64,000 nucleotides of DNA, from the NCBI RefSeq assembly GCF_055900595.2, contig NZ_CM148325.1. One strand, written 5' to 3'. Below are positions 32,945 through 38,036 of the stretch, in pieces; within the stretch, counting starts at the first letter, position 1; every line of letters starts with the position of its first letter. Under the pieces are notes generated by a model. That model did not search any database and had not been told where the DNA came from. It saw only the letters and a list, made by a program, of their open reading frames with translations. Both the position numbers and the translations under genes were made by a program.

Positions 32945-35416
32945 TTAAGAATCAGCCTGACTCGGGATCAGTTTTTGCCAGATAACTGAAACGTATTTTG
33001 CCTGGTAACGGGCGTCATCAAGTGCATTATGCCGCTCACCTTCGAATGGAATAGCCGTTCTGGCATCGAAGTCTATGGCTTTCCCCAGCTCAACGATTGT
33101 GCGTACATCGCGATCGTTGTAGTAACGCCACGGGCAGGGGATCCCCTGCCGTTCGTATGAACGGCGCAAAATCGTGTTGTCGAAGTTGGCTCCATTTCCC
33201 CAGACCTGAACAAAAAATTCACCGGAGTTTTCGTCGATAAATTCCCGCAATTGTAACAGTGCATCATCTAACGGGATTTCATCGGTCATAATGGCAGACT
33301 GCGCTTCACGTGATTGCTTCAGCCACCATTTAATGACGTCACGATCAATGACTCCGCCAGCAGTATTCAGATCTATGGTCTTGCTAAATTCCGGTCCCAT
33401 ATCTCCGGTTTGTGGATCGAAAAATATTGCGCCTATTGAGATAATCGGGGCATCAGGATTTTTTCCCATGGTTTCAAGGTCGATCATTAGATGGTCACAC
33501 GTCCTGCTGGTGGATGTGATAACGTGATGACCGTTCACCGTAATTAAGGGATCTGCCGTCTCGCCAGTTTCACTATCGCTGGCGTGATCCTGAGCGCTGC
33601 CAGCATTCTCCTTGTGTGGATGTTCAGCGCCTTCCATTTTCTCCGAATCGTCTTCCTGAACTTCAACCTGGTTCTTGTCATCGAATGTTTCCTGGTATGT
33701 TGCGTCGCCCATCACCGCACCACATTCAGGGCAGTTGCCGCCGCCGGTCTGACCGTAGGCGGTGCAGATTTTTTCCGCTTCCTGTTGCGCTACTGGCTCA
33801 GGTTGTTTCGTTTCTGGCTCGTTTTGTAACGCATTTGGGCTGTTTTGTTCCGCTTTCTGGTCGTTCTGTTCCGTTTCTTGCTGGTTCTGGTTCACTGAAT
33901 CGCGGGTTTCAATCCCCTTCACCCATTTCGGATCATTCGGATCGCTAATCCCTGCAACAAATTCACCACGTGATACAGCAAGCAACTGATTGGCGTCAGG
34001 CTGGCTGATATTGGCTGCCTGCATAATTTTGTTTACTTCGTCAGCGGTAATTTTTACCGGCTCTGGTTGTGCGGTCGTGTCAGATGCACCAGTATTTTGT
34101 TGTGAACCTGAGTATGTACCGTTTTTGCGGGCGAAATATTCTTCTTTCGTGATTTCAGTAGCCCCGGCAGCCAGCGCCTTATCCAGACCAGAAAGTTTGT
34201 TTGCGCGACCGTATTTTTCGCCATCCTTGTCGGTAAAGAGGAAGTAGAACGGCCCCTCACGCTCTACAGATGGTTCGACTTCCACTTTGCATTCAGTTTT
34301 TTCGTTGCCCGGAATTGCCGTTTCCACTGCATCAGTTTCTGGTACTGGCGACGAGAGAGTATCAGTTGCGCTCTGATTTGTTCCTTCATCTTCAAACACG
34401 CCCTTTGTAGTCAGGTATTTAGTAATGTATTTGTTCAGTGCCACAGGGTCTTTGTGAATGTCGATCGGACGTTCACGGACAAGGCCAAAAATAGTCTGGC
34501 GGTCGTAGCGAAGGGCATCAGGCTGTTTGCGCATTGATGCCGAGATACGCTTCCAGTCTTCGCGGTCGTTGTCGATAACTTCATTTTTTGCCCAGCGATG
34601 GATGCTGCCGTCAATGTTTCCGGCATCCACATCACCAGGCCAGAGAGCGTAGGCCAGTTCGTCATCCAGTGTTTTCCATGTCTGCTTGTATTCGCGATGA
34701 GTGGCAGCAATGACCGGGTTGATTTTTCCTGTTGAATTTTCAGTGTGCTGTTGATTGGCTCTGGCGCGGGCGAGATCAACAACAGACGTGTATTTTCCGG
34801 TTTCCTTGCGTTCATTTTCGCGACGTTTTTTCCAGATGCGCATCTCTGCCTGAATTTCGGGCCATTTAGCTCCAGGATTACATTTATGTTTAACCCACCC
34901 GATGGCATGCAGCTTAAGCTCCGGATACATGGCGTTAACTTCTGGCATTTTCATCAACGCTTCAACGATATGTCCGTCGAATGTTGCCATGTCTTCCTGC
35001 AACAATTCCTGCGCGCTAATCACCATATCAACGGTGATGTTTTCACATGTGTCGAACTTAACCATGACAGCGTTCTGTACTTCAGGGGCCAGCTTGTCAA
35101 AAGTGACGTTCATCGGATCTGATTCAGTCTCAACCGGGACAAAGGAAGCAGACTCCTCATCCCAGCGGTTTTCCTGCATATATTCAGCATCCCAGGAATC
35201 GAGGGCAGGGCGGGGTATACCGGGTTTATCCTCGCAAACAAGAAATTTATAAGCGCAGTCCTGAGCAACCGGATAATGTTCCAGGAATTGCCAGTGAAAT
35301 TTTGCGCGGGCGCGACGTTCATCACCGGCTTCAATGGCAGTGGCTACAGCGATTGCACCTTCTTCCTTTATTGCCTGTTCGTCCGGAATGGCGGCGCAAA
35401 TAAAGACTTTACTCAT
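32945..35416 (-). CDS. Large RecE-like prophage exonuclease-family protein with C-terminal DnaQ-like (DEDDh) 3'-5' exonuclease domain
   Basis: 823-aa ORF; central segment ...LLAVSRGEFVAGISDPNDPKWVKGIETRDSV... resembles the RecE/YdfE family as I recall it; C-terminus has Exo I (MIDLETMG), Exo II and Exo III (ERHNALDDARYQ) DEDDh motifs. Confidence 0.7.
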   Translation of the reverse strand: MSKVFICAAIPDEQAIKEEGAIAVATAIEAGDERRARAKFHWQFLEHYPVAQDCAYKFLVCEDKPGIPRPALDSWDAEYMQENRWDEESASFVPVETESDPMNVTFDKLAPEVQNAVMVKFDTCENITVDMVISAQELLQEDMATFDGHIVEALMKMPEVNAMYPELKLHAIGWVKHKCNPGAKWPEIQAEMRIWKKRRENERKETGKYTSVVDLARARANQQHTENSTGKINPVIAATHREYKQTWKTLDDELAYALWPGDVDAGNIDGSIHRWAKNEVIDNDREDWKRISASMRKQPDALRYDRQTIFGLVRERPIDIHKDPVALNKYITKYLTTKGVFEDEGTNQSATDTLSSPVPETDAVETAIPGNEKTECKVEVEPSVEREGPFYFLFTDKDGEKYGRANKLSGLDKALAAGATEITKEEYFARKNGTYSGSQQNTGASDTTAQPEPVKITADEVNKIMQAANISQPDANQLLAVSRGEFVAGISDPNDPKWVKGIETRDSVNQNQQETEQNDQKAEQNSPNALQNEPETKQPEPVAQQEAEKICTAYGQTGGGNCPECGAVMGDATYQETFDDKNQVEVQEDDSEKMEGAEHPHKENAGSAQDHASDSETGETADPLITVNGHHVITSTSRTCDHLMIDLETMGKNPDAPIISIGAIFFDPQTGDMGPEFSKTIDLNTAGGVIDRDVIKWWLKQSREAQSAIMTDEIPLDDALLQLREFIDENSGEFFVQVWGNGANFDNTILRRSYERQGIPCPWRYYNDRDVRTIVELGKAIDFDARTAIPFEGERHNALDDARYQAKYVSVIWQKLIPSQADS

Positions 35417-35509
35417 TTTGTTTTAACCTCATGACAGATTTAAGGGTGAACAAATCCCTGCCATTGCTGGCATATAAGAATGAAATCGGATGTTTATTAC
35501 GGAACTGTT

Positions 35510-35701
35510 TTAAAGACCTGCCGGGATTTCGTTATTATCCTGGTGAATAACTTTATCGACAGGGTAACAGTTACCGGGAATTTTCTGTTCGGTTGCTGCA
35601 GTCACACACTCCTGCATTGTCCTGTGAACACTGACTGCAATATCAACTGGTTCTCCGGAAACAAGAAAAACTGTCAGAACAAGTGCAAATGCTGTATTCA
35701 T
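35510..35701 (-). CDS. ydfD: Small lysis-associated membrane protein YdfD
   Basis: 63-aa ORF MNTAFALVLTVFLVSGEPVDIAVSVHRTMQECVTAATEQKIPGNCYPVDKVIHQDNNEIPAGL; overlaps dicB stop by 4 nt. Confidence 0.8.
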   Translation of the reverse strand: MNTAFALVLTVFLVSGEPVDIAVSVHRTMQECVTAATEQKIPGNCYPVDKVIHQDNNEIPAGL

Positions 35702-35886
35702 TGCCAGCATCCTTTTTGTATCGGACGTAAACGGGCCAGCATTGAAAGAATGCATACTTTATTTAATAGCTCCCGTTCTTGTTTTCTCTTGTTAATGGCA
35801 TCTTCAGTAAATACTGGGTTACTGATAGTGACACCAATTTCAAAACAACCTTCAGACGTATTAACGTTTGGTAATAACGTTTTCAT
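35698..35886 (-). CDS. dicB: Cell division inhibitor DicB (MinC activator; functional analogue of lambda Kil)
   Basis: 62-aa ORF MKTLLPNVNTSEGCFEIGVTISNPVFTEDAINKRKQERELLNKVCILSMLARLRPIQKGCWQ. Confidence 0.85.
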   Translation of the reverse strand: MKTLLPNVNTSEGCFEIGVTISNPVFTEDAINKRKQERELLNKVCILSMLARLRPIQKGCWQ

Positions 35887-36060
35887 TATCGCGTCCTCAA
35901 CAATGAATTTTGTGATGCAGTGCCTGGTGCCTCCAGGTGACGTTAACCAGTTAACAATTAACGTCGGATACAGAGAATCCACCCATAACACTGTTTTTGG
36001 TTTTAACTGTTCCGCGTGCGCTCAGCCGCATTCACCGCATCACAAAATTCACTTTAAAAA

Positions 36061-36113
36061 CGGCGGCAGAGCAGTCACGGAGTAAAACTGATACCGCTAA
36101 ACGTCACCAGAAA
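36061..36113 (-). ncRNA. dicF: DicF small regulatory RNA (ftsZ-targeting sRNA)
   Basis: Reverse complement TTTCTGGTGACGTTTAGCGGTATCAGTTTTACTCCGTGACTGCTCTGCCGCCG followed by T-run; near-identical to the 53-nt DicF sequence as I recall it; located just upstream of dicB. Confidence 0.75.
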
Positions 36114-36372
36114 ATTGATAACAGAGGGCGTTGCAGCGGGGTTGTCACTTAAGCGTATGGTCAACCTGACAACCCGGTGTCCTCAACGGGGAAGGAATAA
36201 CCCCGCCATACTTACCGCCGCGCCATTTCGCGGGTTGCCACAACCGGAAGCGCACGGTCGAATTAAATTTAACGACACCGTACAGTGAGACGAACTTCGC
36301 CGTGCGCTTTCGTGTTGTGTGCCTGCTTTTAACCACGTCAGGCGAGGTGGTATCCTTAAAATCACCACAGTT

Positions 36373-36948
36373 TTAAGGATTCATTAAGCAATGTCGCAAC
36401 CACCAATAAATCCGCTTAAGAACATGAAAATTGATTACTGGTATAAAGCGCTTACAGTTGTTGGCGCTGCGTTGTTTGTCTTTAATGGAACGTCTTTTTT
36501 TGACAGATATTCCGTTGTTCCATTGGGTTTTTTGTCCTCCGGCATCTTTTTTATTGGTTTGGGGGAGTGGATTAATCACCCTCTCAAAGTGAGATTTATT
36601 GGTCCTGGAGTTTGGACTCGTGGATATAATCGTTCTTCGTGCGCACTCGGTATCATCTTCGACATACTTGGTTGTTTCCTGATTGTTACAGGAGTCGTCA
36701 AGTTCTTCTGATGTAAAACCGCAAATGGGGCACGTAACGGGAATTTTGAAAAGCGTTTCTCCGGGTTCCAGAACAAAATTTTCTGCGGTCTGATTTTGCT
36801 TCTCATATTTGTGCTCCGCGTCATTGTGAGAGCACATTCTTATTCTGAGGGCCTGTTTAAACTCACTGAAGCTGAGAGCTTCTTCGCCTTCGGCAAGGCC
36901 TTCGAAGTATTCTTCGTAAGCCTTTTCCATGATTGTGTCGAAATCCAT
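36373..36948 (-). CDS. Hypothetical protein, ydfB-like N-terminus continuing as a long ORF
   Basis: ORF MDFDTIMEKAYEEYFEGLAEGEEALSFSEFKQAL... starts 1 nt after the ydfA stop; contains CPICGF motif; distal part looks low-quality and an antisense membrane-like ORF overlaps it, so extent is uncertain. Confidence 0.35.
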   Translation of the reverse strand: MDFDTIMEKAYEEYFEGLAEGEEALSFSEFKQALRIRMCSHNDAEHKYEKQNQTAENFVLEPGETLFKIPVTCPICGFTSEELDDSCNNQETTKYVEDDTECARRTIISTSPNSRTNKSHFERVINPLPQTNKKDAGGQKTQWNNGISVKKRRSIKDKQRSANNCKRFIPVINFHVLKRIYWWLRHCLMNP

Positions 36949-36949
36949 A

Positions 36950-37105
36950 TCACTCACCTGAGTTTCTTTCCAGCCAGCGACGGGCACCATTTTCGGTTTT
37001 AAACGTTTTGCTTTTGGTATACGTCATCGCGGTGAACGTGCCGTCCTGGTTGGGAAACACGCCGTACACCAGAGATTCGCTGTTGCCAAGATCGATAGTA
37101 TCCAT
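36950..37105 (-). CDS. ydfA: Small prophage protein YdfA
   Basis: 51-aa ORF MDTIDLGNSESLVYGVFPNQDGTFTAMTYTKSKTFKTENGARRWLERNSGE. Confidence 0.75.
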   Translation of the reverse strand: MDTIDLGNSESLVYGVFPNQDGTFTAMTYTKSKTFKTENGARRWLERNSGE

Positions 37106-37397
37106 GCTGACCTCATTTCCCCTTAACGCCGGGGTAGCGGAACAAAAACCTGCTGCATAGTTATTAAAGTTGAACCCTGCCGTCATGTTCTTACGCCTCG
37201 GGCTGGCTACTTAACCCCTGACCACTGCCTGGTAACTCGACGTATTGCCCTGCATTCTGTGGGGCGGGGTGAGGGAATGAATGAAGTTTAGAAAAATGAA
37301 CATTTAAGGTCAATGTTTTTTTATCAAAACATTTTAAGCAGGCAGCTGTTACGCCATCACTACGATGGCATACAGTTAATCAAATAGATGAGGTTGG

Positions 37398-38036
37398 TTA
37401 AATATCTTTTTGAATTTTAAAGCATACTCCCAATATGCAAGATAGATCATCCAGCATAATTGAAGGGTAGCGAGGATTCGTGGGGACTAAAAGAATATCC
37501 GGCCCTTCTATCTCCAGTTTGCGAATGACAGGCGTTGTGGTCCCTTTGGGTAAGGCAAGGACAATATTTCCTGGTTGTACGATTCGATCGGGATCAACAA
37601 AAACTGTTGAACCATTTGGGATGGAAACTCCACCACCAGATGTCGACATACTGTCACTCTCTAGAACAACAGCAAAGGTATTGGCCGGGATTTCTCCGAC
37701 AAGCTGCACACAAGAGGTTATTGAGGAATTTTTCATATAATCACTCCAGCTTGCTGCCTGCTGAAGTGATAGTAGCGGAACCGTTTTTATCGGCGGTAAA
37801 GATAGATCAAGCGAATCACCTGTATTTAACTCTCCTCCATTAAGAAGCCAATTTTCGTTTACTTTCAATATCTTTGCCAGTGAGCTTATGTAACGCGAGG
37901 ACGGCGCTCCTCCACCGTTCATCCATTGACTTACGGAGCCTTTTGATGCGCCAGTGGCATTGACAAGGTCTTTGCCTTTCAAGTTTAGCGCATGCATACG
38001 TTGGGTTATGCGTTCAGATATTGTTTGCTTGTTCAT
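37398..38036 (-). CDS. CI-like prophage repressor (XRE HTH + LexA/S24 autopeptidase domain)
   Basis: 212-aa ORF; N-terminal HTH (...LKGKDLVNATGASKGSVSQWMNGG...) and C-terminal S24 fold with ESDSMSTSGGG serine motif; divergent from the Cro-like gene. Confidence 0.85.
   Translation of the reverse strand: MNKQTISERITQRMHALNLKGKDLVNATGASKGSVSQWMNGGGAPSSRYISSLAKILKVNENWLLNGGELNTGDSLDLSLPPIKTVPLLSLQQAASWSDYMKNSSITSCVQLVGEIPANTFAVVLESDSMSTSGGGVSIPNGSTVFVDPDRIVQPGNIVLALPKGTTTPVIRKLEIEGPDILLVPTNPRYPSIMLDDLSCILGVCFKIQKDI

Follow-up and report, generated by a model that had tools for sequence, protein, structure and literature searches.

Introduction

The reality of long antisense open reading frames (ORFs) in bacteria and phages is disputed, and most claims for them come from expression data on a single strain. 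In Pseudomonas phage Fc02, gene 10 is second in the early lytic operon and has olg1 antisense to it, and the products of olg1/olg2 and of gene 10 have both been made from expression constructs, with a phenotype (PMC9936078). Antisense overlapping genes have also been described in E. coli O157:H7 and P. aeruginosa, namely ano (PMC5960689), the EDL933 candidates (PMC9927249) and olg1/olg2 (PMC8850804). Here we describe a locus in the immunity region of a Qin/Rac-like lambdoid prophage, within a stretch of 64,000 nucleotides (nt) that we call the window (NCBI RefSeq assembly GCF_055900595.2, contig NZ_CM148325.1). In the early-left operon of this prophage, an ORF that begins at the ydfB start codon (36373..36948, minus strand) runs across a gene for a membrane protein of 106 amino acids (aa) on the plus strand (36391..36711). 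Comparison of related loci favours coding by both strands, with selection for uninterrupted translation. The explanation we prefer, at somewhat less than even chances, is that of a conserved gene pair fully overlapping on opposite strands in the early-left operon, with the minus-strand ORF translated as a bridge.

Fc02 is the nearest experimentally supported analogue. Its layout is the one seen as cro / minus-strand ORF / cII in phage mEp390, L075 and L090 (L numbers designate the sequences compared), in that a small gene on the lysogen-side strand is antisense to the second gene of the early lytic operon. Fc02 differs in being a Mu-like Beetrevirus, and its pellet-fraction protein is encoded in the lytic operon, whereas the membrane protein here is on the other strand. 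Homology was addressed indirectly, by a tblastn search of 50,697 phage records with the plus-strand protein, which gave no Pseudomonas match. What the genes of O157:H7 and P. aeruginosa have in common with this locus is a coding ORF on the antisense strand, inside or extending across an annotated gene, that annotation pipelines mostly discard. The support for them is expression-based, whereas here it is comparative: the frame is open in at least nine lineages at 40-70% identity, covers the whole 106-codon gene and has unique coding extensions at both ends. In the dnaK shadow ORF (Pfam PF10712; bioRxiv 10.1101/724807), antisense stops are likewise avoided, without negative selection on amino acids. 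In contrast, the ORF described here reaches into unique DNA under purifying selection, has ribosome-binding sites and an operon slot, and the avoidance is absent from non-phage homologues.

The locus also resembles sieB of P22, lambda and Rac, a small membrane-protein gene inside the early-left operon, beside the immunity region and in opposite orientation, that is presumably expressed from the prophage. Ranade and Poteete are said to have described sieB and the sas antisense RNA of P22 in 1993. SieB excludes or aborts superinfecting phage, and an in-frame product, Esc, is made from within its gene. Both there and here the membrane gene points against the operon, so that the early transcript is antisense to it. 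This likeness lies in placement and orientation; there is no sequence similarity, and the Pfam SieB domain is absent from the plus-strand protein. Moreover, the antisense strand of sieB acts as RNA, whereas here it is a stop-free ORF with a conserved coding N-terminus.

The operon itself has the backbone of the dicBF operon of the K-12 Qin prophage, with the order ydfA-ydfB-ydfC-dicF-dicB there (PMC5069750). The window shares with it ydfA, the first 34 codons of ydfB, DicF, dicB and ydfD at 95-98% identity and differs in a cassette that stands in place of ydfC and the end of ydfB. In our literature search no paper was found on the gene pair, on gp39 of mEp390 or on the long ydfB. Compared with single-strain expression data, this locus gives the opposite kind of evidence: a frame kept across phages whose synonymous sites are saturated, over a sequence that is itself unconstrained. 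It separates what must be translated from what must have a given sequence.

Absence of stop codons opposite the plus-strand gene

The two frames are codon-aligned (the low coordinates of both are 1 mod 3), with the second codon positions facing each other and the third of one codon facing the first of the other, so only the plus-strand codons TTA, CTA and TCA give stops on the minus strand. None of the 10 Leu and 7 Ser codons of the window gene is one of these. Pooled over 15 phage lineages, TTA or CTA occurs at 0 of 190 Leu codons and TCA at 0 of 52 TCN Ser codons; the same lineages use ACA, GCA, GGA, CCA, ATA and GTA at 7-28%, and homologues with a closed antisense frame use TTA/CTA/TCA at 43-45%. 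Of the non-phage homologues, most have 5-17 stops in the antisense frame, as do two low-GC viral contigs, and a few have none; these few are mostly of high GC (L097, L108 and L113; GC 0.58-0.64). Stops number zero in every other phage or prophage lineage examined, including those at 40-57% identity and GC 0.40-0.53.

By local codon usage, the probability that the window alone would lack an antisense stop is 0.003; per lineage, by the codon usage of flanking ORFs, it is 0.001-0.2. When the largest per-lineage value is taken from each cluster, the joint probability is about 1e-16 over nine lineage clusters below 70% identity and about 1e-6 over four very loose clusters, and even inside clusters the synonymous sites are saturated (synonymous divergence, dS, 1.8-2.6). 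Among 80 viral loci the frame is stop-free in 26 of 27 divergent full-length copies and 44 of 48 close ones. Since these loci were gathered through the plus-strand protein alone, they carry no ascertainment bias on the minus frame. Both reading frames are open over the overlap in relatives beyond chance, as in an antisense overlapping pair, and the minus frame through the cassette has been held open by selection in many phages.

These counts bear on the possibility that only the plus-strand gene is real and that the minus-strand ORF was lengthened by an accidental in-frame junction with ydfB. With only TTA, CTA and TCA making stops in this frame, chance does produce long shadow ORFs; no constraint on sequence is seen in the overlapped tail itself, the ORF is mostly unannotated in RefSeq, and the dnaK antisense ORF is a known instance of stop avoidance without negative selection (bioRxiv 10.1101/724807). 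However, a chance shadow does not account for the lack of any stop in 15 lineages whose synonymous sites are saturated, nor for avoidance specific to the three stop-making codons and a frame that is closed in non-phage homologues. It also leaves aside an N-terminus in unique DNA that is conserved, under purifying selection and behind Shine-Dalgarno sites, and an ORF tightly packed between cro and cII. We regard this account as very improbable and already strongly disfavoured.

A membrane-protein gene on the plus strand

The plus-strand ORF (36391..36711) is a real, conserved membrane-protein gene under strong purifying selection, to judge from its homologues, substitution rates and predicted structure. 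About 60 full-length homologues (100-111 aa; identity down to 34%) came from a protein search. Some lie outside phages, and they include proteins of Yersinia, Herminiimonas and Reinekea and many from metagenomes; YWYKA, GxGEWxNHP and two glycines do not vary within the family. In the plus frame, pairwise ratios of nonsynonymous to synonymous rates (dN/dS) are 0.04-0.20, and divergence follows the order third, first and second codon position (p3>p1>p2). The AlphaFold model (predicted local distance difference test, pLDDT, 85.7; predicted template modelling score, pTM, 0.72) has helices at residues 17-32, 42-62 and 85-105 and a beta-hairpin at 66-78. A preliminary description of this DNA had read 36391-36711 as a 106-aa protein with three hydrophobic helices behind an AAGGA sequence resembling a ribosome-binding site, and had offered a real antisense gene as one possibility. 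Conservation, purifying selection and the confident model bear this out: the model agrees on the helices and adds the hairpin, and AAGGA is present at 36375..36379 on the plus strand, though 11 nt upstream of the ATG, a spacing longer than optimal for a Shine-Dalgarno-like sequence.

The plus-strand protein has no family match in Pfam, PHROG, NCBIfam or PADLOC; searches by fold and against the PDB were uninformative. With hmmscan at E<=1, only two Pfam matches came up, both sub-threshold, and SieB was not among them. Beside the non-phage homologues no conserved partner gene was seen by eye, without profile searches. What emerges is a conserved membrane-protein family of phage and prophage immunity regions, with relatives outside phages, that has neither name nor model.

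One alternative raised at the outset, that the minus-strand ORF is an intact, longer ancestral ydfB that was frameshifted in K-12 and that the plus-strand ORF is spurious, is refuted. It does explain why the first 34 codons are those of ydfB and why the frame continues from them. However, the difference from K-12 is a block replacement and not a set of frameshifts, substitutions in the overlap follow the plus frame and are anti-coding for the minus frame, and the plus-strand gene has non-phage homologues with 5-17 antisense stops. We leave it next to no probability.

The unique N-terminus of the minus-strand ORF

From the ATG at 36948 (MDFDTIMEK...), the minus-strand ORF has 191 codons and a TAA stop in the ORF list, with AGGTGA 5-6 nt upstream of the start. 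This ATG lies 1 nt past the ydfA stop, a TGA at 36950-36952. The preliminary description had placed the ydfB-like start correctly and had put the length at about 190 codons. The full open span, 36373-36990, would give 205 aa from an upstream ATG at 36990. The ORF starts with the 5' part of ydfB (36848..36948), 34 codons in a stretch 98% identical to K-12 ydfB/ydfA and joined in frame to the cassette ORF. It continues through unique, non-overlapping coding DNA (36712..36847), where a mini-domain of about 40 aa (...PGETLFKIPVTCPICGFT, with CPICGF at 36715-36732) is kept in register across lineages. Its form is ...PGE.LF.IP..CP(I/V)CGF in enterobacterial prophages and L..L....PGSV..DE..GSVTLIGW in a second clade. 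In this stretch substitutions track the minus frame (p3>p1>p2), and dN/dS is 0.2-0.4.

In every lineage the ORF begins 35-60 codons upstream of the overlap, in unique DNA, and Shine-Dalgarno motifs precede the assigned starts in most of them. E. coli has two independent in-frame joints, one at ydfB codon 34 (the window type) and one at the ydfA start codon (L013, L062). A profile of the family retrieved 130 cluster representatives, of which about 25 are full length. The sole match of the ORF in Pfam, PHROGs, NCBIfam and PADLOC was PHROG 35040 ("unknown function"), and this group is the ORF itself. In some E. coli prophages (L062:1017-1856 and L064:2689-3531; also protein P0068) the ORF continues in frame into ydfC and is open for about 280 codons; it has 245 aa in P0068.

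The preliminary description had posed a choice between an intact ancestral gene and an antisense gene. This choice falls away, since the minus frame is also selected and has a conserved coding N-terminus of its own; the evidence points to coding by both strands. The scoring of codon periodicity in both frames, proposed as a check, found the plus frame in the overlap and the minus frame in the unique N-terminus.

The overlapped tail

The remainder of the minus-strand ORF (36376..36711) consists of 107 codons exactly complementary to codons of the plus-strand gene and five more before the stop, 18 nt beyond the plus-strand start; it is stop-free here and in 15 divergent lineages. The tail is strongly hydrophilic (grand average of hydropathy, GRAVY, -1.2). 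In its own frame the apparent dN/dS is 0.8-1.6, and the substitution pattern tracks the plus frame (p3>p1>p2), being anti-coding for the minus frame. Amino-acid identity of the tail between distant lineages is 0.270, compared with 0.258 expected from synonymous shuffling of the plus-strand gene (z = 2.6). AlphaFold predicts disorder for the minus-strand protein (mean pLDDT 55), except for a C-terminal helix. Purifying selection, clear in the plus frame, is found in the minus frame only in the unique N-terminus, in the avoidance of stops and possibly in the last eight codons. As the tail sequence drifts while stops are avoided, the selected property would be the open frame and not a particular sequence. 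An oddity of composition had been seen earlier in the distal third of the ORF; the oddity is real (hydrophilic, disordered and complementary to the plus-strand gene), but it takes in the last 107 of the 191 codons. Selection for a basic, N-like tail was likewise considered and dropped: net charge ranges from -4 to +13 and is unbiased (mean z 0) against synonymous resampling.

A different reason for the open frame may be that the minus-strand protein is bipartite, with the N-terminal mini-domain and a C-terminal amphipathic helix both needed and a free, disordered linker of about 90 residues between them. We hold this unlikely as it stands, but it is a close second to the explanation by polarity and coupling set out below. 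The sole confident element in the AlphaFold model of the minus-strand protein is the C-terminal helix (residues 137-152, pLDDT about 89). The eight codons beyond the plus-strand start show minus-frame periodicity (p2, 0.38 < p1, 0.58 < p3, 0.72; a small sample, which weakens the test) and a recurring pattern of H-hydrophobic-hydrophobic-x-R-hydrophobic. Two diverged miniatures of 80-81 aa retain the N-domain and the C-terminal segment, the middle being gone. However, the C-terminal segment complements the most conserved part of the plus-strand gene (NPLxxLxIDYWYK) and its A-rich leader, so its conservation and part of the periodicity may be imposed by the plus strand. In L068, moreover, the protein ends short of the overlap and carries the mini-domain at its C-terminus.

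Two states of the pair may be described here. The miniatures lie between cro and cII (L118:2592-2837 and L119:3001-3243); each is an ORF of the minus-strand family made up of N-domain and C-terminal segment without linker, and opposite it, codon-aligned, is an intact plus-strand ORF of 33 aa with a single helix (MENPLSKLALDYWYKVLIVAGTALIIFGIIKLF). In L068 (2992-3675), a low-GC viral contig, the genes do not overlap: the minus-strand gene ends ...KIPVICPICGFTSE and a stop, at the stop of the plus-strand gene. The C-terminus of this protein is ...CPICGFTSE, and the plus-strand gene of L068 freely uses the stop-making codons, with eight antisense stops.

Operon position and a possible role in translation

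In the cro-cII lineages 1-34 nt separate cro from the start of the minus-strand ORF, and 4-36 nt lie between its end and the next gene. The layout cro / minus-strand ORF / cII is found in L075, L090, mEp390, L118 and L119; in the second clade, to which phage mEp390 (gp39) belongs, the membrane gene of this layout is on the cI strand. The equivalent placement in the window is the ydfA/ydfB early-left operon, and the same slot near the immunity region is used in Yersinia and other prophages (L006-L013). The tblastn search with the plus-strand protein returned only five phage records, representing three phages (HannyBb, mEp390 and Bcep176). Of these, gp39 of mEp390 is an ORF of the minus-strand family and gp33 of Bcep176 contains a homologue of the plus-strand family. 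The mEp390 record likens gp39 (L116:2456-2911) to Bcep176 gp33 (L117:2384-2848); similarity between the two proteins is unsupported (BLASTP E = 0.53, not significant).

In the explanation we favour, the minus-strand ORF would be translated from the early lytic transcript, straight across the backwards-embedded membrane gene. The most likely reason for the open frame would be that ribosomes are carried across the reversed gene without a long untranslated gap, sparing the downstream early genes Rho-dependent polarity and a loss of translational coupling. The genes protected would be cII and the replication genes in cro-cII lineages, and dicF/dicB and the exonuclease gene in the window. In the lysogen a promoter of its own would drive the membrane-protein gene, which converging early transcription would shut off after induction. 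The more specific claim, that the tail is a "translated bridge" about 107 codons long, kept stop-free through a long span of evolution solely for ribosomes following RNA polymerase, we hold tentatively, as something that could well be otherwise, and we hold no more firmly the corollary that selection acts on translatability and not on the protein sequence. If true, one piece of DNA would give a membrane protein in the lysogenic phase and another product in the lytic phase, the expression of each strand excluding that of the other.

Several observations weigh against this explanation. The window fits polarity less well than the cro-cII lineages do, as the minus-strand ORF stops about 260 nt before DicF, in a stretch that is untranslated in K-12 too. 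L068 and L084 lack the overlap, and 4 of the 48 close E. coli copies carry a single stop in the tail. The periodicity, the C-terminal helix and the miniature variants suggest that the far end of the minus-strand protein may matter. The A-rich minus-strand RNA of the overlap has no consistent excess of C over G of the kind seen in Rho utilization (rut) sites, although the absence of such composition neither supports nor excludes an explanation by polarity. Finally, that either strand is translated we infer from evolution alone.

The early transcript might instead act as antisense RNA that silences the membrane gene after induction, translation of the minus strand being irrelevant. Convergent transcription is unavoidable in this layout, and position and orientation match those of sieB in the pL operon of P22 and lambda. 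However, a function at the RNA level predicts neither the avoidance of exactly one frame's three stop codons nor a conserved coding N-terminus with Shine-Dalgarno sites, and it could coexist with translation instead of replacing it. As a full explanation we find it improbable. Whether the antisense ORF is a real gene can be tested directly in the isolated phages mEp390 and HannyBb, with mutations that introduce a nonsense codon on one strand while remaining silent on the other.

The cassette and its annotation

As the preliminary description had stated, K-12 annotation places just two short genes here, ydfB (42 aa) and ydfC (72 aa). A search there for frameshifts relative to K-12 found none. 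By blastn, only 35400-36330 (95%) and 36848-37143 (98%) of this region align with K-12 (L002), with no match between. As homology ends at 36330 and resumes at 36848, the difference is the replacement of a block: a foreign mosaic cassette of 517 bp (36331..36847), not in K-12, substitutes for 396 bp that hold ydfC and the last codons of ydfB. The proposal that a longer ancestral gene is intact here fails on the same finding. YdfB is the same as in K-12 up to ...SFSEFKQAL and divergent after it, continuing ...KQALSSSAKSNG and a stop in K-12 and ...KQALRIRMCSHND... in the window. Full-length YdfB (42 aa, ending ...KQALSSSAKSNG) is absent from the window, where only codons 1-34 match before the foreign sequence, and no ydfC homologue was found between ydfB and dicF, K-12 positions 2102-2497 of L002 having no counterpart.

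The cassette is carried by 805 of 5426 complete E. coli genomes (about 15%), in 786 of these at >=99% identity, and by the isolated phage HannyBb at 98% identity. Neither gene is usually annotated in RefSeq. Annotation of the cassette is inconsistent (L001, L120, L121, L115), RefSeq mostly marking only a ydfB pseudogene, and the Prokaryotic Genome Annotation Pipeline labels the window copy "ydfB, missing C-terminus". Some RefSeq genomes call the 191-aa minus-strand ORF as WP_000344958.1, HannyBb is annotated with the 205-aa version, and the plus-strand protein is called only occasionally in public annotation.

Candidate expression signals of the plus-strand gene

Conserved -10-like elements suggest that the plus-strand gene has a promoter of its own. 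A candidate extended -10 promoter, TGgTATCCT, is predicted from conservation at 36348..36356 (plus strand), and TGgTATCnT stands at equal distance upstream of the plus-strand start in the window, L013, L062, L009, L006, L069 and L068. In the second clade TAAAAT/TAGAAT -10-like elements are conserved upstream of the gene. A scan for promoters and terminators called neither a consensus promoter ahead of the gene nor a terminator behind it. At the cassette's right edge (36810..36846, plus strand), a hairpin (36810-36836) with a U-rich run after it appears in both minimum-free-energy and centroid folds and is a weak candidate terminator of the plus-strand transcript, the z-score of the region being only -0.48.

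In L075 (2935-2994), and also in L073, L091, L102 and L116, the -10-like element is 17-23 nt from the cII start codon, so that a -35 element would overlap the first codons of cII. We take this placement beside the cII start to be reminiscent of lambda pRE. Speculatively, the membrane gene might ride on a pRE-like establishment transcript toward cI.

Neighbouring genes and the variable slot

Leftward, the operon of the window reads promoter-like site, ydfA, ydfB start, DicF, dicB, a DUF1482 gene (ydfD in K-12) and a large exonuclease gene. The candidate early-left promoter, TTGACC-17-TAAACT (37285..37313, minus strand), is a pattern match from a consensus scan, upstream of ydfA. The first gene of the operon, ydfA (DUF1391; 36950..37105, minus strand), matches Pfam PF07151 (E=1.7e-26), in agreement with RefSeq annotation, and DicF small RNA (36061..36112, minus strand) matches Rfam RF00039 (64.8 bits, E=3e-13) downstream in the same operon.

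Other E. coli prophages carry different plus-strand genes between dicF and ydfA, which makes this slot a position for variable cargo. These encode a 114-aa protein rich in CxxC motifs, a zinc-binding protein of the ECs_2282 family and a 66-aa protein (L003:2233-2577, L004:2571-2771 and L005:2090-2290). The ECs_2282 gene of L004 is a different plus-strand gene from that of the window, and membership of this zinc-binding family was rejected as an identity for the ORFs described here, neither of which matches any NCBIfam model. The 66-aa slot gene overlaps the 3' end of a 121-aa minus-strand gene by about 30 nt at its own 3' end. A plus-strand ORF of 201 aa (35480-36085), which faces the region homologous to ydfD-dicB of K-12, is probably a shadow.

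The immunity-region context is set by a CI-like repressor ORF of 212 aa from the ORF list (37398..38036, minus strand), with a cro-like ORF to its right. RefSeq annotates the equivalent region as a "LexA family protein" and places Cro/CI and YdaT-like genes to its right. In L001, a RefSeq genome 99.8% identical to the window, this "LexA family protein" has 112 aa (L001:4099-4437), compared with the 212 aa of the window ORF at 37398-38036.

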